Positions 1,019 through 27,499 of a stretch of 64,000 nucleotides of DNA are shown here, in pieces (within the stretch, counting starts at the first letter, position 1; every line of letters begins with the position of its first letter). The DNA comes from Marsupella aquatica (Eukaryota > Plantae > Marchantiophyta). The translations under genes were made by a program, and so were the position numbers. Under the pieces are notes generated by a model that searched no databases, was not told the DNA's origin, and saw only the letters and a program-made list of their open reading frames with translations. The stretch lies in the NCBI GenBank assembly GCA_973895155.1, contig OZ316891.1, forward strand, positions 9,239,875 through 9,303,874, given 5' to 3'.

Positions 1019-4000
1019 TTAAATTCCACTTGTGCCCCGTTTCACCTTCGGCTGATCCCTCTCTAACCAGTCTGGACCATAGATAGCAACATTGGTCCGC
1101 CCATATCTTCTGTCCTTGATCTGAAAAAGTATCAGCACAATAGTAAGTAAGTATTCAAGCAAATCGCAACGCCTCCGGGATTCATAAACAAAAAAGAAAC
1201 TACATGATGAACAAGAACCTTGAGACAGAACAAACCTTAATAAGTGCGCCACACGAATCAGGCATCTCATTCTTGGATTTTAGCGGATACTCCACAACCT
1301 GGACAACCACAAGATTCTAGGAGAGGTAAGCATGTGCCAGTCAAAGGACACTTAGTATGATGTTGATTTGTTTAATCTTACTTGTCCCTGATGTGTCAGA
1401 TCAAGTGAAGTGCGTATCACTGCGAGGAAACTTTGTTCATGATTCTTCTAACGGCACAGTGAAAAAGTCACGCTACACAGAAAGACACAATACTAGACAT
1501 GCCTCCCTTACACCACCGCCATCCTTCAATGGAACCCCTGAGATTGAAACAAACTCACCATAAACGTGTCTTCTTTCAATAGCGGTGATGCAGAAAGCTG
1601 CGCCATCAGCTGTGTGTACGAGACTGCTTCATATGGGGGGGTCACACTGACATAATCAAATGGACCACCAAAAACTTCGGCTGCAGTATACAAAACAGAT
1701 GCAAAGGGTCAAAGGTGGACCATTTGAATCTGCGTTAGTCCGGCCAGCTGTACTGGTTATTGACACTAATTGTAGCCTCTTGGCCATTCGCGTACTACAA
1801 AAAGTTTGATTTACGGTGATGGGACCTATTGCTCTTGTGTTGTTAGACCACCCTGCAACGAAAGAACTGGATCCTAATTGGATGATGACATTGTTGGAAA
1901 ACAAATTCTTACCCCCGCGTTTTGAGGCTTGTTCAAGCAAGGTCTCGACCTTGGATGTATGTATTACTGTTTGATTGTGACAGTTTGTGTCCTCAAGATT
2001 AGGGCGTAGTACATTAGTGATCACCCACGGATCCATTTCCACAAAATGTGCTTCCTGACATGCAAGCAACAGAAACTCCGGACTAGTCGCGAATGTACAA
2101 CCGATATCCAATCTCATACTTAACGTGAGACTTAGAGCAACAGAACTTGAGCAAAATAAAGCCAATGCTGAACAAAGCTCTGTCCCATGCCACGCAAGAA
2201 GTTCCAACAATGAGTCCTAGTTCAACTGTAATGATCAACTTCCAAAGCTCTATATTCCGTACAATATAACATCATTCAACCCTAACGACAACCCTTGCTT
2301 CAACACGTCAACAACGATTTTTCAAAGGAGTTTAGTTCAACAGCAAAGTACACATAAGAGACTTTCCCACTGGATTTAGGACCTTACAAACATTAGAAAA
2401 AGCTTTCATCAAGCTAAGAAAAGACTTACTGCACAACAACCTCTGCTCATAGCCTCAATGGCAACTGAACCTGTGCCACTGTAGAGGTCCAACCATCGCC
2501 CTGATGGAGAGCTTGGATTCCAACTATCCAGAGACTGTTGACAAACAACGTATATCAGACGATATCTGCGTATTTCTTTGCAACCAAAATTTTGAGACTT
2601 TAGTGCTCAAAGGTAACTGAGAAATTGGTTTGTCGGAGGAGGACCAAATTTTGACTGCTCCACGGATCACCCATGTAAAATTGTGACTTCATACTCGGTT
2701 CAACAGTTCTGTACTAGAACAAAATATGATACCTTAAGGATGTCGAAGACAGCCCCTCGCACCACTTCCATCATTGGCCGTACTTTGGCATCAGCGGGAG
2801 ATGTGAGCTTCTTTCCAGCACATCTTCCTGCCATTACCTGCAACACACGCGGATACTTGGAGAGATTCACAACTGGGACCATAATATTGTGTCGCAGGAT
2901 TCAGTTGGTTTTGGTTCTTCAAGGCTTACAAGAGACAGAGCTTTTTCGAAACACAGGGTTGACACGATTGCCGATTGATAGGTCAGACAGTACTGTTTGC
3001 CAACAAATTAATCAAGACAGACGCCCTTCAAATGTATGAATTCTCTTTGCTTTGCTGCCGAAGGGCAATCATTATTCATCTCCTATGGAAAATGACTATA
3101 GCTTAGCGATTTCTTTTCACGGTCGTTGAAGAGATCAGTACCTTCAACAGCTTATGAGTGGCTCTCGGAGGTTCTACTGGAGTCTTGTCGACAATCGCCC
3201 TTTTTGTGCGTCGTACACTCTGAAGTTGTTGCTTCAATCTCACTGGCATTTGAACGCCAGCAACCTCCATCATCTGTATGTTCAAAATATCGAAATCAAC
3301 CTTAGATGCAATGATCAGCAACACAATTACAACATTATTGATGCTTACCGATAATTGCCAATTCATCTACAAGATCTTGTTCCATGTTAAATAAAAATAA
3401 ATACAGAATGTAAAAGTCTACCAAACCCTGGTGACCATTATAGCGTGATGAAAACTTGTGGAGGAAACTCGTTCACGCAGGTATAGTTGGCAGAAATCTC
3501 CTACTTTGTTCCAACATGGCGATAAAGGTTTGTAAAGAGACCAGCCTCCAAATAATCCCAATCTCCTAACGCAAGAATAGGCATTTTCGCCTGACAGAAG
3601 AGAAGACCTGTTCGCAGTTTCAATAAAACAGGAGCAATAATATGCAAAAACACTCACCTCTTCAGAGGCTGCAAAATCGACCTTCCAACCATCATCGATG
3701 GTATAAATATCCTCTTCTCTCATGTCTGTGCGGTTTCCCTTGGTTTGGTCTCTGCCATCCTCTTTGTCTCTCCCTGAGCCTGAATGAAATTATAGTGAAA
3801 GGATTGACAAAGAGTTCGGACGGAGCACAGGGTCCAAATCTCAGTACGAACGTCGGAGAGAGTTTTGCCTAGCCGAAAGTGAGCTTAGGTCCCTATTTAT
3901 GAATGTCAGCCCTGTTCAGTAAGGTAGATGGCAGATTAATGTCCGAAACTTACTTGTCCCAGTCGTTGCAGGTCGTTGCGAAGCACATCGTGAAGTAACA

Positions 4001-4941: not shown

Positions 4942-5278
4942 GGCTTCTTCATAAAAAGGATCTTTCTTGAAACCAAAGCGTTCCATGATCATCGAAGATT
5001 TTTTAATCATTTTGGAGACTACAACTTTGGAGTGAGAGGCTGGGGCTTCTTGGGCTTCTTCATAAAAAGGATCTTTCTTGAAACCAAAGCTGTTCCATGA
5101 TCATCGAAGATTTTTTAATCATTTTGGAGACTACAACTTTGGAGTGAGAGGCTGGGGCTTCTTGGGCTTCTTCATAAAAAGGATCTTTCTTGAAACCAAA
5201 GCTGTTCCATGATCATCGAAGATTTTTTAATCATTTTGGAGACTACAACTTTGGAGTGAGAGGCTGGGGCTTCTTGGG
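4942..5278. repeat. Tandem repeat, 3 near-identical copies of ~112 bp
   Basis: Unit ggcttcttcataaaaaggatctttcttgaaacc...gagaggctggggcttcttg occurs three times; copy 1 differs by a 1-nt indel. Confidence 0.95.
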
Positions 5279-6974
5279 ACATCAGAGGTTTCAATCCCAA
5301 CAGGTTTGGCTTCGGGACCCTCCTTTGCGGTTTGCTTAGGAGCTTTTCGGGACCCTCCTTTGCGGTTTACTTAGGAGCTTTTCAGATCTCCAGTTCACTA
5401 GAGTGTTAGCCTTCAGGGCTCCTTTGTAGGTTACTTTTGTTGTCTTTGTTCCTTCATGGGGCTTTTGGTTGGGAACCCCTCTGCTTGTTTTTCTTGTGGC
5501 CATTTTCCCTCTTTTTCTCCCCTTCATTGGGTTGCTTTGCCTTTGGGATCTTGTCCCCCAGTTGGGTGTTTTTTGCCCTTGGGCACTGTGATATATCTTA
5601 GGCATCCAACCCATTGCATCTGAGCACAAAAAGTATAAAGTAGTTGAAGCCATGGTTTTTGTGGGATACTCCTTGACTTGTTGGGCCTCTTTGGTCTTCT
5701 CGGGGTCTTTCCCTTTCCCCACTTATTGGGTTCTTTTGCCTTTGGGACCATCTCTCCCTGTTCAGAGTTCCTGTCTTTTTGGCAGTGTGATGTATAGCCA
5801 TGACAGGTGTTTGGCGCTCATGTTGAAAGACTATATTCAAAGCCAGACCACTCTTCCTTGAAGTCAGCTTTCGGTTTGAAAGCACAAAATAGCTAGCTCA
5901 AACTTTGGACTTTTTATTTAAAGGATAGTATAATAAAAAACATTCCATTTAAATTGTCAGGTAGATGTGATGTTTTACGGACAACTTTGGGCTCTTTCCT
6001 ATCCAAATTCATGAAATAATAATATAAGGTATGATGATGAGATCATAAGGAGCACTATTTAGGAGCACTTAGGACAATCATCACTCATTTGTTTTTCAAG
6101 ACTTTTGTTTAATGTTCTTTAAACCACAACTGCTCATATTGGGAGAAGTGTCCAAAGACTTCTCCCATTTTCCTCATTCCACTCACTTCTTTCCTCTAAG
6201 ATGCCAGTCTGTTCCACTTATGTGGGAAAAATTTACTGTTAATAGTGAAACTTGGATCCTATGGGAAATAGGGAACACATAACTACAACTGTAGGGAAGC
6301 CAAGTTGCAAGAGACAGCAATTGACCACAAAAGAGTAATTTTCACTTCACATTGAAAAAAGAGAAAAAGGACCAATTTTCTGAAATGGTCCAAAGAAAGT
6401 ACAAAGGAGATAAAGTAAACCAGAAAATAAAGAGTACATACAGCAAAAGAAGAGGGCAAATGCAAACCCCCAAAACCTAGAAAGACCAATAAAGGAGAAA
6501 TTAAAATTCTATCTCCGGGGAAGTGTGTGATGTTATGATCTCCATTTAGTTTTGTAACTAAGTCTCCAAGTGTAACATGGACGTCCTCTAATATATGGGG
6601 CTCTAAGGGGGCAAGCCTTTGCTGCTGCATACTAATACCACTACTAGAGATCTATGATGAATCACTCAGGCTTGATCACATTGTAACATCACTGAAATCC
6701 ATTGCCAAAAGCGCTTTGTCAAAATGGTCCTGTGGAATGAGCCCGTGATTGAATGTCTTCCTCGAGCTGCCTGTCAAAGAAGCCCATTGAACTGATGATA
6801 GAGTCTACCAAATATCTCAAATAGCAAGGCGGAGAAACGCATTTCAATAGCGAGGCGATGATGCTTGTGCTCCATATTTTCTCACCTTTTGCCGTCGGGC
6901 CCCATGTTGCCACTATCCCAATGATATCTTGACACAAAGGGTTGGTTCTAGAGTGGCTGCAGATTTCCTTTTGA

Positions 6975-7199
6975 GAGAGGATTAATGCACAAATCACCTA
7001 TTGTCAATCACTTCTCCAATTTGTTCAGAGGATTGGCCAAAACTATGCACAATCAGCTCAGTGTGAACAACATCATGGGCTCATGAATCACTCCTCCAAT
7101 TTCTTCTGAGGATTCGCAGACAATGCACAATCATCTCAGTATGGTGCGAATGTTGCCCTCATCAATCACTCCTCCAATTTGTTCAGAGGATTCGCCAAC
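6975..7199. repeat. ~80-bp tandem triplication of the cyanamide hydratase stop-codon/3'UTR junction
   Basis: aatcact(c/t)ctccaattt(g/c)ttc(a/t)gaggatt at ~7006, ~7086 and ~7164; the first two copies are followed by atgcacaatca. The 7164 copy contains the real stop codon. Confidence 0.85.
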
Positions 7200-8202
7200 A
7201 CCCCTTCCGAGAAAGCCTTCATTCCCAGCCTCGTCGTTGACGCATACGGCTTCAGAGTGCAGTCTTTGTCAATCACTCTAGCGAAGCATCTCGACCACTT
7301 CCCCCTGGGAAACGAATTGTAGATATCGTCGAATGTCTCCCTTGCAACCAGCTGCTGGTGTCCTCCCATATTATCTGCCATCCCAAAATCAGATCCTGAC
7401 ATTAGCCCTTCCTTCTCCTCTCTAGCTCCAGGCATCAAAATCAAGGCACTTACGAAGAGAACAAGCAGCACTGAAATCCTTCTTGTTTTCTCAATCTATT
7501 GCTGAAACTTCTTTCTCTCGACAAAGAGAATGAGAGGAAAGGAGCATTGAAAGCAAGGCAATTGAGAAGAGACCACGGAGAACTGAAATTATACGTGATC
7601 CTACTGCAATTCCATTGTTTGAACCTCTTCCGTCGGAAAACAGAGCAAGTTGAGAGGAAAGGGAGGAAACAGAGGGGAAATGATTCACCGAATAGAGTGG
7701 CAATCTGAATCAACTGCGTGTTTGCGCTCAAGTACCCTCTGCGGCCGACATCCTGGTGTCTGATTATCGTCTCCGCGACACTATCTCCCATCTCGGGGTC
7801 GCCTCCGTTCTCCTCCACCACCAGCTTGCGCGCAAGGAAGCCGCCGTAATACTCGAAGCTCATTTTCGTGGCAGCGATGTTTGCATCAGTCGTCCCGATG
7901 TCGTGAAGCAAGCAGCTCAAGAAGTACGTCGTGGGATCCTCGACCAGAGACGGCCAGGCCTCGCGAAAATGCTCGAGAAGCACTGCCTCGCCGATGTAGT
8001 ACACGCGCATGCTGTGGTTGTATGTCTCCGGCGAGAGCTGCGCTTTGGCGAAGGCCTGCACGGCTTGGGCGAGGGGCGACGCCGGAAGAGGGAGGGACGA
8101 GACGGAGTACACAGTGGTGGTGCTGGAGGTCAGGTTGAGCTTCAAGATGACCTCCTCCACGTCTCGGAGGACGGGCTCAAAGCCATGTTTAGTCGTCGGC
8201 AT
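7166..8202 (-). CDS. cah: Cyanamide hydratase-like HD-domain metalloenzyme (fungal Cah / yeast Ddi2-Ddi3 family), 2 coding exons, 240 aa
   Basis: Exon 8202-7689 (ATG CCG ACG...TTC G), intron 7688-7375 (gtgaatc...ggcag), exon 7374-7166 (AT AAT ATG...TGA); 723 nt in frame. Motifs HGFEPVLRD, TYNHSMRVY, LLHDIGTT, TKMSFEYYGG, VAETIIRHQD, LIQIATLFDNMG, FPRGKWSRCFA, KPYASTTRLG. Probable 5'UTR intron 8347-8222. Confidence 0.9.
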
Positions 8203-9494
8203 GGTCAGTGAGACTAGTGTGCTAGAAAACAGAAATTTGGAGGCTGGGCCGGAATGCTCCAAGATGTATAGATCAAATTGAGCAATCGGAAAGCAATCGA
8301 GCTAGCTAGAGACACTTACACACTTGATTAGATTTTGCGAGTGATACCTGAAAGGTCTGCGGATTGACTCACTACAGTACTAGGTGGAAAGGCGTCAAGA
8401 GAGAGTTGAGCCCCGAATTCATTTGTGAAACAGTACACACTCAGTGCAGAAGATTGAGATATCGGATTCCGAATACGATATGAAGAACATTAGGTGAGTA
8501 CGTTTACGCAAAGCAAGTGAGCAAACAATCGGGCATAGATAGTACGTACTGTCTACACTATTTTCTGAGCGTCTAGTATTTAAGTCAGGAACTGGGAAGA
8601 AAGATTGGGAAGAGGCAAACTACAAAACCCGAGTCCAGATTGGACGACCACATAAAGCCCAGAGCTCTCCTCTAATCTCACCAGACAATTGAGAAGCGTT
8701 ACTCACAGAGATTTATCAGTTCAACTGGATGGAACTGTCTCCTATTCACTGGTTTAGAATGGAATTGAAAGCTGTCGTCGGAACAGCGAAGTGTTGGGTC
8801 GAGGTCGTCTCAAAAGGTGTAACAGGTCAGACAAGTAAATTGTCCGCTGCAGCTGTCAATTCGCACAGTTTGTTGTTCCTTGGATGAGACATACTCGTTT
8901 CCTGGACTGAAGTGGGCGGACAGTTTGCATTCTGGTGTTCAACGTTTCACAGTGTGACAGACACAAAAGTAAAGCTAATCAGGTATCAAACTCTGTACCA
9001 CATCAGAGATGCGCGGCAATTCAACGATTACAAATTAAGGCAGCACTTCGAGCATTGATATACCACAATTCAGATTTAGAACATATAAATACGGATCTGG
9101 CAATATGTCTTACAATTGTGAGCTTCAGATTAAACCGGAGGCAGAAAACAACGAGGGTAGTTCAGCAACTAAGGAGGTCAAGAAGATCGACTAGACAACG
9201 AAAGCATATCCTCATGTTGACCCACTTCCCCGACGTCATTTTGACCCTCGAAATCACAATCTGCACACGTCAGGAACGGTCAAATTTGACCCACTGTGAC
9301 CGCGAAAGGAAGTGAGTCATTCATATTACACAGTTAAAATTGCTGGACTTGCATTGGTACCAGAATGGACTCTGCACTAACTTCAAATTTTTTGATTGCA
9401 CTTTAACTTCAAACACGGTCCAAATTTGAAGAAGAGATATTAATAGGGCCTCGAAATATATATTATGTTGCTAGTGAAAACAAAAGGTGCCCAT

Positions 9495-9616
9495 CCACGA
9501 GAAAGTATCCGAGAGGCAAGAGACCCAATAAAAGGAAGGCCCCAAGAAAAACACCACGAGAAAGTATCCGAGAGGCAAGAGACCCAATAAAAGGAAGGCC
9601 CCAAGAAAAACACCAC
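9495..9616. repeat. Tandem duplication, 59 bp x2
   Basis: ccacgagaaagtatccgagaggcaagagacccaataaaaggaaggccccaagaaaaaca at 9495 and 9554. Confidence 0.95.
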
Positions 9617-11616
9617 AAGAGCCAAAAAGCAGGGGAGTCCTTACGAAAGTCCCCCACAACCATAGACTAAGGGCCTACTAACCTGTCAACAAACTGAAAA
9701 GCCAGGTAGAGCTCCAGGGCAGACTGGATAGGAGGGTCACATAGTGATATTTTGACTATTAGTCCTAAAAACAAGTGTCTCATCCCCATGAAGATAATGA
9801 ATGCATAAGCCCTCTGTAGACAGACAGACATCCATTGTCTATAGAAGGTCATCATGACAGAAACTGAGGGATAAGGACTGTTGAACTCAAAAGATGGTTC
9901 CAAGTAGAAGTGAAAGCTATGTCAAGCAAGAGGGACATCATGGTAATTACACATAAAAAAGTAGCTCTCAGTTATGTAGAATGAACAACACCCAGGGAAA
10001 TAACAAAACAATCTGGTTTTTATTGGTATGTAAAATCCTTCCAGCCTGTGGGAAAATGCCATGTCACCAATTACACCCTACAGTGCAATATTTGATGTGC
10101 ATCTACCAGAAAAGTTACTTGACATTGCAGTGATCTCCTCTTTTGAAATTAGAATGTTTGGGTGATAAGATGAGTGGAAGTTGTGTACAGAGCCAACGCC
10201 ATAGGGGGGTTCACGATGTTCTAAAGCAATGCTGCGGAACACACTAATCCCATGCCTCAGGGGAGTAGTATGAATGCAACTGTTTTCCTCTCTAGACTTA
10301 AAGTCATTTTCTAATTGTTATTATTTTGGTACCTCAAGGTACCTTAGTGCTGGGAGACATTGGGCAAGCAAGAATGCAAAATCATGCTCCTTTTTGTGAT
10401 ATATATCAGTGTCAGCCAAAGTTATATATATGGCGATGGCACTATACCGGCACCGTTGTGACACAGCTACTCCTACTGGCAGGATGCAGTTGCAGTGCAG
10501 TCATTGTCTGAGAGAAACACCCTCCTTTGCCTTACTGTAGGGAAGACCAGATTTGCGAAATGCCATAAATATTTATCTAGATTTCATTTTTTGTACTTTC
10601 AATAAATGTATACTTAATATATGAGTGTTTTGCATCAAAATGCTTAGAATATTCCTAAAATATGCTTTGTGAATTATTTTCCATTCACGTTTCACTAACA
10701 CTACCAAACTAAAAGTTTAATGACTAGCACATTCTGTGGGCTGACAGGACTGAGGCTCGTCATGTATATTCCTACTCACAAGCATAGTCTATCTATCTAA
10801 AAACGCAGGTCTGATCAAAAGTGAAAGTTAGGATAAGGGCCTATGGTCCAGCTTTGATCTAGTAGGGGCACAACTACGGTTAGGGGTGGAGATGCAAATG
10901 GACAAGATGGTACTCGCCTTCTATTTATGAACAAAGCTTGAGCATTTGGATTAGTATATCAAAATTATACATTCACCAGAGAAATTATAGAGTGGTTCAT
11001 GGTTTCACTCTACTGACTAGGTCATAAAGTAAACTTGATTGTGAATTATAACACAGACTAGCCTCAATGCCTGAGCTTTGCTTGTAAATAGGTGATTACT
11101 CACCATTGTTGTCACTGTGACTGTAGGCACGTACTCTACCGTTCTATCACAGAGTATTAGATAACTGAGCTCCCGTTCTTTGAGCAGAAATAGAGATGAG
11201 TACATTTTTAACTCACATTCCCAACTTCAATTACACTCCCTGAGATATGGTCTAGAGTACTCAATTTAGATTGATCCAAGGCCTGAAGAGTAACTTTAAA
11301 TTGAAATTATGATATAGTTAGATTACATTATTATTTAAGTTTTTTGGTTAAGCTCATGACCTGATTGTCCCTATGCTCTTAAGGTGCCCGCTCTCTGTCC
11401 AATTCCTTGTCATTTGATTCGAAGTCTCGCACAGGGACCCACTGTGGCAAATTCCGCTGGTTCCTGCTCACTGGCCGGTCTCCCGGAGTGTGCCACTCCC
11501 CCTACAATAGATAAATCCCTGGGTTGGCTTCCTTGTTCTTAGGTCTTGCTTCTCTCTTGATACCAGCCTCTCTGGTTTTGTTTTGTTTTTTGCCTCCCAA
11601 AAATCAATTGAATTTG

Positions 11617-11769
11617 ATTCAAAAAGCCTGCATACAGAAATTCAAAAAGCCAGCATACAACATATGTTGGCCTCTCTGGTTTTGGGCACCATACTTTGGT
11701 CCACCCCTGGTGCCGATCCCCTTGTGGGCCACCCATGGGCCACCCATGTTGTATGCTGGCTTTTTGAAT
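11617..11769. repeat. Perfect 24-bp inverted repeat with 82-bp spacer (MITE-like or hairpin), plus an extra partial left arm
   Basis: attcaaaaagccagcatacaacat (11640-11663) is the reverse complement of atgttgtatgctggctttttgaat (11746-11769); partial copy at 11617-11636. Confidence 0.85.
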
Positions 11770-11783
11770 GTAATTCAAATGGG

Positions 11784-11848
11784 TGATTTCGAGACAAAAA
11801 GTTTAGCACACTGATTTCGAGGCAAAAAGTTTAGCACACTGATTTCGA
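11784..11848. repeat. Tandem repeat, 28 bp x2.3
   Basis: tgatttcgag(a/g)caaaaagtttagcacac at 11784 and 11812, partial at 11840. Confidence 0.9.
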
Positions 11849-12049
11849 TACTTCGCAAGCAAGCTTGGCCTGTGAGGACGTGTAATGCGTTCAACCTCAA
11901 ATCCAATTCATCCAATAATTCATACATATAAAACTGGTGTAGGTGGACTCGGATGAGCCAGAAAATATGCTCGTCCACGACAGACTAGGCGAAGGCCACA
12001 AATGTTCAGCTCCTAATTCACCTACTGCAATGCCAACTGTCTGCAAGAG

Positions 12050-12352
12050 CTTGAAGCACTTGGGTGAGCTGAATTTGAGGGATTGGGGATCGGGAGTCGA
12101 TAATCCTTTGAATTTTCCGAGATAAAGAGATTGGGGGTGGAGGATTCGGATGATTGGGCTTTCTGAATGACGCACAACACGTTTGTATTTTGGTCATTCA
12201 AGACCTTGAAGCATTTAGGTGTGCTGAATTTGAGAGATTGGGGATCGAGAGTCGTTGATCCCTCGAAATTGCTGAGGTAAAGAGATTGGGGGTGGTCGAT
12301 TCGGATGATTGGGCTTTCAGAACGACGTATAACACTTTTTAATGCTGGTCAT
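12050..12352. repeat. Diverged tandem duplication, 155-bp period, upstream of the DUF6817 gene
   Basis: cttgaagca...gctgaatttgag...gattggggatcg...taaagagattgggggtgg...gattcggatgattgggctttc at 12050 and 12205. Confidence 0.9.
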
Positions 12353-12832: not shown

Positions 12833-14059
12833 ATGTGTGACGAGGACGTGAGCCTGTCAGCAAGGCTCGACCAAGCTCGGTTGTTCATTCGCAAGGCTTA
12901 CAGCAAGATTGACCCGGAGCTGCCTGCTTTATTGGAGGTCTTGGAGGATGCGGGAGCGGCCGAATGTTGGCACAAGCATAGTACCTTTTTCGACCATCTT
13001 CACAATGTTTACCGAACCCTGAAGCTGTGGAATTGTCCAGACTCGGTCGCTCGCTGTGGTTTGTTCCACTCCTCTTACTCCAATTCGTATGTGAATCTGG
13101 CAATCTTCGAGCCCAATGTAGACCGGCAGAAAGTTCGTGATCTCATTGGTGACGATGCAGAGGAGCTTGTCCACTGGTTTTGCATCGTTCCCAGACAGGA
13201 GCTAATTTTTGATATGCTTGTCTCGAATGTATACGGCGATCAAAAAGCTGGGCCCGGTCGAAAACATCCGGAAACGTTGGGCAAGTCTGCCAATGACAAG
13301 CGGACGGTGTTGGTCCCGCCTGAGGGTTTAGTTGTGCAACATATTCGTACCGGAGAGGATCTCCTAGTTCCCAGACGACTCATCGCCATCTTTCTTATAC
13401 TCACCATCGCAGACTTCAGTGATCAGTGGTATGGTTGGCAAGATAGCATGTTCGGAAACGCAGATGGTAAGATGGAGTTTGCAGAAAACGATGGGTCACC
13501 ATTATGGCCGGGAGACGGAAAACCTGGATTATGGATGCCAGCTATCTCTCGCATGGGAGTAATTCTCAGTGAGATTTTGAGAGACGAAGAGGAATACGAA
13601 GCTGCTGAGAAAGAACAGGGCAGAGGAATGGACTCAAGGCCTTTCAGCCACATAGAAATCAGGGCTCCTCCCGTTTTGAAGCATTGCACTGAGACTGTCT
13701 CCCCGTCAGATCAAGTTCAGTCCATGAACCTGTACTGGGAAGCTTTATGCAAAAAGGACCATGGTCAAGGCAATGATTTGGCTAAGTCCTCTCTTATGAA
13801 AGCCATTCAACACAACCCTTACCTTGCAGAGCCTCACATCGTGCTTGCTCAAATACTCCTAGCAGAGGGAAAGTGGGAAGAAGGTCAGGAAGAAGCCTCG
13901 AAAGGATTGAAACTCCTGCTTGAGTGGGGCACTCACTGGGACAAGAGAATGACTTGGGAAGGCTGGATTGCATGGGCGCGCGTGTTAAGGACGAGTGGAG
14001 AACAAAAGACTTGGCCCAAAAGTGGATGGGGTATCATTAACCTTGGCCTGGTGACGTGA
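12833..14059 (+). CDS. DUF6817 (HD-like) + TPR-like protein, intronless, 408 aa
   Basis: Long open ORF with GAAECWHKHSTFFDHL..YRTLKLW..PDSVARCGLFHSSYSNSYVNLAIF, TIADFSDQ, LWPGDGKPGLWM, NPYLAEPH and WGTHWDKRMTWEGWIAW. These match a conserved plant/algal family of unknown function (recognised from memory). Confidence 0.85.
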   Translation: MCDEDVSLSARLDQARLFIRKAYSKIDPELPALLEVLEDAGAAECWHKHSTFFDHLHNVYRTLKLWNCPDSVARCGLFHSSYSNSYVNLAIFEPNVDRQKVRDLIGDDAEELVHWFCIVPRQELIFDMLVSNVYGDQKAGPGRKHPETLGKSANDKRTVLVPPEGLVVQHIRTGEDLLVPRRLIAIFLILTIADFSDQWYGWQDSMFGNADGKMEFAENDGSPLWPGDGKPGLWMPAISRMGVILSEILRDEEEYEAAEKEQGRGMDSRPFSHIEIRAPPVLKHCTETVSPSDQVQSMNLYWEALCKKDHGQGNDLAKSSLMKAIQHNPYLAEPHIVLAQILLAEGKWEEGQEEASKGLKLLLEWGTHWDKRMTWEGWIAWARVLRTSGEQKTWPKSGWGIINLGLVT

Positions 14060-25329: not shown

Positions 25330-25855
25330 GGAGTAAATCTATTAGAAAAAATTACCTTACTCCCCATTTCACAAGACTCTCTGAAGTGTATTTCAATCCC
25401 AACATATTTGGAATGTCATTTGTTTGCCTTAAGAGTCAGCAAAATATTTCCTTGCTGTTTTTTGCAGGAACCAAATGACCAGTACGCTATTCCAAGTTAT
25501 GTGTAGCAACTAGTGTCAAAGAGAACAAGTAGACAGAGATTTACAGAAAGGGCCAAACAAAGTGCAATAGACCAAACAAAAGAGGTCCAATGCTGACAAA
25601 AAACAAACTTAAAAGAAGTGAGCAAAAGGAAACCCCTAAAAACCCAGAAAGAGGCAACAAAACAAAACCAACACAAATGTACCTAGTTACTCATCAAACC
25701 TAGCAAATGTGACAAAAGCTAATGATCCACATGGGGTGTAAAAACTAGTGTGAACCGGACACACCTTTTAGCTTAATTTATTGTTGTGCTTGGTACCAGC
25801 AACCTGGCACAGGTTGGTTGCTCACTGATCACTGCCTCCCAGTTTGCCCTGTGAA

Positions 25856-26595
25856 GCCCGGTTTTCACTGTCGGACAAGATGTGTCCTTGTCCGACAACA
25901 CAAATGACAATTTGTCCGCCCAAAAGTGGCCTATGTGTCCAATATTCCCTTATATTCCCCGGCCGGGACCAAAAATTCCCGGCCCATCCCCGGCCCGGTC
26001 TTGAATTCTCCCGACCCCTCCCGGCCAAGTCCCACCCCGTCCCGACCCTCCCGGCCCGGTTGAAAAGACTCCCGGCCGAGTCCCGGACTTCCCCGGTTAA
26101 GTGAGGCAGCCCCTGGTTTAGGGTCCCGACCTTCCCGGCCCGGCTTGCACTCTCGGCCCGGCTTCCAATTCCCGGCCCTACCTCCCTTCCCGGTCCTCCC
26201 TACCTCCCCTTCCCGGCCCTCTCTCCCCTTCCCGGCCCTCCCTCTCTTCCCGGCCAGGCCTCCTTTCCTGGCCCGGCTCTCCCCTTCCCGGCCCTCCCTC
26301 CTTTCCCGGCCCTACCTCCCCCTCCCGGACCTCCCCCCCTCCCAGCCCAACCCGGCTCTCCCCCCCCCTCCCGGCCCTCCCCACCTGACTCCCGGCCGGC
26401 TCTCCCGACCCCCCCCTCCCGGCCCTCCCCGCCCGACTCCCGGCCGGCTCGACCCCCCCCCCTCCCGGCCCTACCCGGCCAACCCCCCGACCCTTCTCCC
26501 GGCCCGACCCTGTCACCCGGCTGGGATCGACCGGGATGACATATGTCATTTGTCGTCCCAAATCCTCCTATTTGTCTGACAAGTCCAAACCGGGC
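25856..26595. mobile_element. GC-rich non-autonomous TIR element (740 bp) with direct-repeat target duplication
   Basis: Ends GCCCGGTTTtcactgtcggacaa / ttgtctgacaagtccAAACCGGGC; TGTGAA on both flanks (25850-25855, 26596-26601). Interior has many cccggcc motifs and is strongly C-rich on +. Confidence 0.8.
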
Positions 26596-27499
26596 TGTGA
26601 AAACAAATGAAGTATCTCTGAAACAGTTGACTATCTTGCCCAATGCCCTTATGGGTTTTCTTTTGTGTTGGCACTTATTGCGTGCTGTGAAGCCTTAGCT
26701 TAGCAGAAAGTTTGATTCAGCGCCAAGTACAATGCAGGGGATAATGCTGTGGCCGCACACTCACTGCCCGCAGCCCTGTTCCGCAGCCCTGTTCCGCAGC
26801 CCTGTTTGTCCACTGACCACAAAAAGTGTGCGGTTATATTTTCCAAGTGTCAAAAGCAATGAATGAACCCCACTTTTGGGTAGGGTTTGTGTCAAAAGAA
26901 AGTTGCAGCTTACCAGATTTGAACCTAACTCGGCTATTCTACCAATATCCCAACATTTGTTTCACATCTAGCCTCATTCCCACCTTGTACTATTGATATT
27001 GATGTTTGGCAATAGCTTCCCTCGTATCATGCATTAATGTGCATCAGAATTATCAATCATACTAAATGAAGTTTGTCTGGTGAAGTTACGACTCTTGGAT
27101 TCAAATTAATTTTGGTGAGTAATCAATAGAAAATTTTAAATAAATCTTTGTATAGATTTCAAGCCACCTCACTCAGTACCTCACTTGGTAGCAAAAATCT
27201 GCTAAACATTTGTACAGAAAGGACACAATAGTGCCCACACCCAAACATATTTGTAAGAATTGCTAGGAAGTCTAAAATCAGCTGTTCTGTGGAGATTTTA
27301 TATGATCAAAATGTTGTGGGTTGGGTTGCCCTACAAAATCTGTGCACGGTTCCCAAGAAAGCTACAACCACTAGCTTGGGCTCCAGTGCACCTGAGTTGC
27401 AATGGCATCCGCACCAAAATTGGTCCGAGCAAGCCAAATAGTTATTGCCAAAAGTTGGGTTTTAGTCAGGGTCATTGAGGGAAACTTCCCAAGGCAGCT

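Follow-up and report, generated by a model that had tools for sequence, protein, structure and literature searches.

Gene structure and family assignment

The window analyzed here, a stretch of 64,000 nucleotides from Marsupella aquatica (assembly GCA_973895155.1, contig OZ316891.1, positions 9,239,875 to 9,303,874 of the forward strand), carries a gene of the cyanamide hydratase (Cah/Ddi2) family, which is probably a resident, conserved, fungal-derived gene of a leafy liverwort. The gene lies on the minus strand and has a coding sequence (CDS) of 723 nt, or 240 codons, in two exons (8202–7689 and 7374–7166) with one stop. Its parts are as follows:

7689..8202, minus strand: coding exon 1, 514 nt, with the ATG at 8202; residues 1–171 and the first base of codon 172, including H63, H100, D101, H149, Q150, and T169
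7375..7688, minus strand: coding intron, 314 nt, GT-AG, phase 1, which falls within the codon for the invariant Asp172
7166..7374, minus strand: coding exon 2, 209 nt including the stop that ends at 7166; residues 172–240, including N173 and the C-terminal motifs
8222..8347, minus strand: predicted intron of the 5′ untranslated region (UTR), 126 nt, GT-AG, called from splice signals only

Against the TIGR03401 hidden Markov model (HMM), exon 1 alone scored 176.5 bits (cut-off 109.85), and exon 2 matched the remaining profile at positions 165–228. With the ATG, the GT-AG junction, and the single stop, this score bears out the intact two-exon open reading frame (ORF) of 240 amino acids proposed in a preliminary description of the window, and all the family motifs named there are present, at residues 61, 98, 112, 146, 167, 193, and 213. 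When alternative GT/GC-AG splice pairs were enumerated, the family motif was restored by 7688/7375 alone. The predicted junction reproduces the sequence of the uninterrupted close relatives P0001, P0002, and P0122, and at the Asp172 column 20 of 20 diverse family members agree. P0001 and P0002 lie uninterrupted on contigs of 1.4–1.7 kb, which suggests that they may be spliced transcripts of orthologues. The predicted 5′ intron has a good donor (CAG/GT) and an acceptor rich in pyrimidines, and three indels fall within it in sequencing run X5. Ahead of it is an upstream ORF of 16 codons (8422–8372, minus strand), which may fall outside the transcript.

The preliminary description had also held that the CDS is richer in GC than its neighbours, and the direction of that claim stands. 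Exon 1 has 58.7% GC (GC at third codon positions, GC3, 0.78), exon 2 51.5% (GC3 0.66), and the whole CDS 56.4% (GC3 0.74), compared with 43–56% and a GC3 of 0.37–0.59 in ten stretches of four window genes used as the host comparison; the excess is mainly at third codon positions. The range of 58–72% given earlier was overstated.

Relatives and phylogenetic placement

The nearest proteins among the matches listed were P0001, P0002, P0003, and P0121 (83–86% identity), then P0122 and P0004 (71–74%), followed by proteins of the jelly fungi Auricularia and Exidia (58–61%) and by ascomycete enzymes at ∼50%. No named plant protein was among the matches listed (120 of 195 and 120 of 461), though the database holds proteins of Calypogeia, Riccia, Marchantia, Sphagnum, and Ceratodon. 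Of 1.84 billion representatives searched with a profile, 755 matched, 150 of them being listed and 20 named; the named ones include a partial protein of the chytrid Rhizophlyctis rosea, other basidiomycetes, Umbelopsis, a cluster with Adineta vaga, and transcriptome proteins of Pteridium aquilinum and Welwitschia mirabilis. A scan of prokaryote genomes gave 39 pattern matches and no relative; its patterns were fungal, so remote bacterial homologues could still exist. In the Atlas, bacterial HD clusters stood at 0.94–0.96 by features.

Phylogenetic analysis used a maximum-likelihood tree of 46 rows (IQ-TREE, LG+C20, midpoint root, no bacterial rows), picked from fast trees of 194 and 78 rows, and the topology tests were chosen after the fast trees were known. 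The window gene and three close relatives formed a clade (support 100/99), which was joined by P0122 and the Auriculariales (97/93) and then by the Rhizophlyctis protein and a fragment (99/95); the whole assemblage lay inside a group otherwise composed of ascomycetes (92/91). A single clade of the liverwort group and the fern and gymnosperm rows was rejected by the approximately unbiased test (p-AU 7.7e-6), and vertical inheritance is therefore removed as the simple reading. The tree places the gene among fungal enzymes, as had been anticipated in the preliminary description, and beside the Auriculariales, and a fungal origin is very probable.

A second group of Cah-like proteins also passed the TIGR03401 cut-off, namely P0412, P0424, P0396 (with P0485–P0498), and P0476, from the Pteridium and Welwitschia transcriptomes and a 25-member cluster. 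In these the position of Ddi2 Q138 is K or R and that of N161 is V, and they were placed near the rows of Umbelopsis and Adineta vaga, well away from the liverwort gene. The earlier statement that this is not a standard land-plant gene therefore needs qualifying: it agrees with the lack of named plants among the listed matches, whereas a separate group of Cah-like sequences does exist in fern and gymnosperm transcriptomes. That group is possibly an independent acquisition in vascular plants, and the balance tips slightly toward two separate plant acquisitions, one in liverworts and one, with a changed active site, in the transcriptome-derived fern and gymnosperm rows. In the bdelloid rotifer Adineta vaga, the TIGR03401-passing protein P0512 (in the cluster of P0408) is encoded on an 18-Mb contig.

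Probable residence in the plant genome and purifying selection

The gene is set among plant genes of the same assembly, as the preliminary description had claimed. The nearest of these, 4.6 kb away, belongs to the context and lies outside the transferred segment; genes for WDR11 and a short-chain dehydrogenase (SDR) lie farther out:

12833..14059, plus strand: intronless gene for a DUF6817 protein of 408 aa, a neighbouring plant gene

The DUF6817 protein is 84% identical to that of Calypogeia fissa, 56% to those of Riccia and Marchantia, and ∼50% to those of mosses and seed plants, and its match to Calypogeia is the basis on which a leafy liverwort host was deduced.

Short-read DNA contigs, whose depths are contig depths rather than copy numbers, contained the stretch wholly or partly in six sequencing runs from four studies, with at least half of it in four of the six. 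The gene itself was found in five runs, under organism labels A or B, from three studies; the third study (run X5) covers it at low depth. In run X1 the contig carrying the gene (6451–9524) has a depth of 17.2, its four longest neighbours ranging from 16.2 to 20.7, and in run X3 the gene contig has a depth of 41.8, with four other listed pieces at 36.5–52.2. A contaminant is unlikely, because the depth is host-like in several samples under two organism labels, and we are highly confident that this is a resident nuclear gene.

Relative to the window, the X3 contig has 5 changes in 723 coding bases and 16 in the 314 of the intron (Fisher p=1.6e-5; 25 differences in all), and two long contigs of run X4 have 3 in 723 coding bases and 9 in 303 intron bases (p=0.0014; 18 in all). 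Six of the eight coding changes in these two runs are silent, whereas only 23% of sites are silent, and the other two are Glu/Asp swaps; indels in X3–X5 are confined to introns. With few coding changes, most of them silent, next to a freely varying intron, the gene is under purifying selection, and the earlier suggestion of a domesticated gene is borne out to that extent. Run X6 holds more diverged copies, in which 9 of the coding differences listed are silent and 2 are not. One diverged X6 copy (7669–7930) has 1-nt and 10-nt deletions in exon 1 and occurs beside several intact-looking diverged copies; it may be a dead copy in some relative.

Intron site and proposed route of transfer

A metagenome scan found 142 loci, of which 80 were listed, and none of these exceeded ∼55% identity except over short segments, so no liverwort-like contig with flanks was among them. 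The site and phase of the coding intron are common to six of the 80 loci (three distinct types), and four more have a 36-nt GT-AG gap there; eight loci showed alignment offsets and one was unscorable. Among 364 homologous proteins, 56 run into unrelated sequence exactly at the intron point (2 of the 56 being false matches), as is expected when a gene caller reads into an intron; P0121, which is a close relative, the Exidia-like P0007, and named ascomycetes are among them. Because the sole coding intron sits at a site used by fungi, a transfer of eukaryotic genomic DNA is favoured over a bacterial or messenger RNA (mRNA) route. A segment of fungal genomic DNA, intron included, would thus have entered an ancestor within the leafy liverworts, where the gene would have gained host expression signals and then been kept by selection.

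Weighing the alternatives

The horizontal, fungus-to-plant acquisition put forward in the preliminary description is supported by the plant neighbours, the occurrence in three studies, purifying selection, the tree, the fungal intron site, and the rejection of plant monophyly (p-AU 7.7e-6). Several observations weigh against it or against parts of it. The liverwort origin of P0001, P0002, P0003, and P0121 (83–86%) and of P0122 (71%) is deduced rather than recorded, and the placement of P0122 is ambiguous, since it fits beside the Auriculariales at least as well as with the liverwort group. The Auriculariales copies do not group with those of other named basidiomycetes (p-AU 0.0003). Of the eight X3 pieces listed, three have greater depth than the rest (63–89), depth in X4 is 152 over exon 1 and 69.3 over the intron and exon 2, and in X2 (read to 57%) the exon 1 piece stands at 113, with 24–71 elsewhere. 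None of the listed short-read contigs joins the gene to a flanking plant gene, because on either side they break off in repeats; the sequence in X1 is identical to that of the window, which may derive from this run, and X3 and X4 come from one study. At the intron site, 61 of the 80 metagenome loci are contiguous and intronless, though some of these are likely to be transcripts and the listing is biased toward unbroken matches, and the high GC3 of the gene can also mirror expression level. Exon 1 (region 7679–8274) has about twice the depth of exon 2 in X2 and X4, with a loose end at 7685 in X4, and there may be a second, partial copy in some samples.

If the gene came from contamination or a chimeric join, fungal endophyte DNA would have been assembled between liverwort repeats. 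Leafy liverworts do host basidiomycete endophytes, and both the breaks at the repeats and the deduced origin of the nearest relatives would suit this explanation; yet it is quite improbable, given five runs under two labels from three studies and depths in X1 and X3 close to those of single-copy flanks. The 314-nt intron is moreover longer than nine of the ten introns at the same site in fungal loci (36–105 nt; one of 720 nt), and searches of the flanks and intron against the 80 metagenome loci (blastn, tblastx) found no similarity. Vertical descent from an ancient eukaryotic or land-plant gene that most plants have lost, with the fern and gymnosperm sequences as its orthologues, is more improbable still: proteins passing the family model do occur in the Pteridium and Welwitschia transcriptomes and in Adineta vaga, but they are only 25–29% identical to the window protein, compared with 60% for the Auriculariales, their union with the liverwort group was rejected, and the listed matches name no plant despite the bryophyte proteins in the database.

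The donor and direction are the less settled parts of the account. A jelly-fungus donor, the first guess, was not established, and a clade of the liverwort group, the Auriculariales, and the other named basidiomycetes was rejected (p-AU 0.0003); because of this rejection, the Auriculariales gene has either been transferred itself or is an old paralogue. The Auricularia and Exidia proteins (P0123, P0006, and relatives) sit with the chytrid fragment among ascomycete enzymes, a possible fungus-to-fungus transfer or old paralogy in its own right. Serial transfer, in which the liverwort lineage took an ascomycete-type or chytrid gene and passed it to the Auriculariales, or both received it from one unsampled donor, is an outside chance. 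It draws on the separation of the Auriculariales copies from those of Tulasnella, Mycena, Rhodosporidiobolus, and Pseudohyphozyma, on next relatives that are the partial Rhizophlyctis protein and a fragment, on a tree with P0122 beside the Auriculariales that improves on the free tree by 5.2 log units (p-AU 0.74), and on a loop insertion common to P0122 and the Auriculariales and absent from the window group and the outgroups. Against it, P0122 would have to belong to a plant, the position of the Auriculariales is explained equally well by ancient paralogy and losses, a p-AU of 0.74 does not show a clade, and no more than one derived residue supports any of the three groupings (counts of 1, 0, and 0 for the three placements of P0122, which is uninformative). 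A fungal P0122 would make the transfer plainly one from fungus to liverwort, whereas a P0122 of liverwort origin would nest the Auriculariales among plants. Under either outcome the deeper ancestry of the gene is fungal. The plant-to-fungus step from liverworts to jelly fungi is by itself unlikely, as is a repeated crossing between kingdoms, with an ascomycete-type gene passing to leafy liverworts and on to jelly fungi and a separate version with a changed active site in ferns and gymnosperms.

Active site, fold, and predicted activity

Yeast Ddi2 was matched with an E of 2e-31, and the only solved structures matched by sequence were its three variants 6DK9, 6DKA, and 6DKD. The window residues H63, H100, and D101 correspond to the Ddi2 zinc ligands H55, H88, and D89; T169 corresponds to T157, the residue changed to Val in 6DKA, and H149, Q150, and N173 correspond to H137, Q138, and N161, for which second-shell roles are reportedly known from work by Li and colleagues in 2019. 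All eight active-site positions checked (H63, H100, D101, H149, Q150, T169, D172, and N173) are identical to those of ascomycete enzymes. In Ddi2, one zinc is held by H55, H88, and D89, a threonine (T157) stands where HD-family enzymes usually have their last aspartate, and cyanamide takes the position of water on the zinc (PMC8177086).

The fold was assessed by proxy, through a model of the orthologue P0001, which is 85% identical to the window protein. That model (pLDDT 93) superimposes on Ddi2 with a TM of 0.87 and an rmsd of 1.6, and all 15 of its structural matches with E≤0.001 were Ddi2 chains, so the window protein is predicted to share the Ddi2 fold. Because the active-site residues of Ddi2 are kept and the P0001 model matches Ddi2, the gene product would most likely hydrate cyanamide to urea in vitro. 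By homology to the yeast enzyme, it would add water to cyanamide or a similar small nitrile: H63, H100, and D101 would hold one Zn ion, the nitrile would displace the zinc-bound water and then be hydrated, and any urea formed from cyanamide could be reused by the plant as nitrogen.

Whether cyanamide itself is the substrate that matters in nature is doubtful, because the compound is known from four legumes among >550 plants tested (PMC4650597). The role we favour is detoxification of some cyanamide-like compound of microbial or litter origin, the recovered nitrogen being a side benefit.

Side features of the locus

The 3′ end of the gene overlaps a short tandem array, whose copies are 77–93% alike:

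7004..7201, no strand assigned: three tandem copies, spaced 78–80 nt apart, that cover the final codons, the stop, and the beginning of the 3′ UTR

High-copy host repeats and local tandem units (112, 35, 59, and 155 nt) occupy both flanks of the gene (5000–6500, 9495–9612, and 11600–12350). An exon of the left neighbour, at 1659–2216 (minus strand), gave a weak Pfam match to PF03602 (E 0.005, below the cut-off), and resembles plant RsmD-type methyltransferases. A low-complexity tract at 25800–26700 is GC-rich (∼60%) and strongly skewed.

Significance and comparison with known systems

Cyanamide hydratase has been puzzling since 1991, as a specific enzyme for a compound rare in nature. A liverwort that keeps such a gene under selection would offer a new, testable handle on its natural substrate, and the gene would be a form, naturally adapted to plants, of an enzyme that crops have been given as a foreign marker, as well as a clean case of DNA-level transfer with the fungal intron retained. 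The significance would rise if the fern and gymnosperm group is a second acquisition or if the Auriculariales received the gene from plants; repeated capture by plants of legume-poor habitats, if true, would suggest that some natural substrate other than legume cyanamide is widespread.

A literature search, which covered few subscription papers, found no report of a native plant cyanamide hydratase, and papers on cyanamide hydratase and horizontal gene transfer, judged by title and the start of the abstract, included none on plants. Dong et al. (2025) describe 1,809 transferred families, with an average of 229 per bryophyte and several from fungi to liverworts (PMC12513842); cyanamide is not mentioned in its main text or in one supplement, and the family lists lie in other supplements, where the family may already be listed. 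Transfer from fungi to liverworts is thus a common, known type of event, which limits the surprise, and is apparently unreported for this enzyme. The transfers of RDS1, YANB, EUPF, and FB lectin described in the same article resemble the present case in placing a fungal gene among plant genes in a bryophyte.

The closest named proteins, the putative cyanamide hydratases EJD53860.1 of Auricularia subglabra and KZW03943.1 of Exidia glandulosa, are 60–61% identical to the window protein and sister to it in the tree, and the Exidia-like P0007 breaks at the intron site of the window gene; the Auricularia and Exidia proteins differ in their longer loop insertion, are uncharacterised, and stand apart from other basidiomycete copies. 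Yeast Ddi2/Ddi3 (PDB 6DK9, 6DKA, and 6DKD) share with the window protein the HD fold, the Zn ligands, and the equivalents of T157, H137, and N161, at ∼41% identity and a TM of 0.87 for the orthologue model, whereas the window gene sits in a plant genome, is interrupted by a coding intron, and falls in a distinct subclade on a long stem. The Cah of Myrothecium verrucaria, a transgene marker in crops, is of the same family by family assignment rather than by direct sequence comparison, and a CAH coding sequence has been used in maize transformation (PMC4122164). In contrast to that transgene, the window gene is natural in its plant genome and is presumably spliced by the plant's own machinery.
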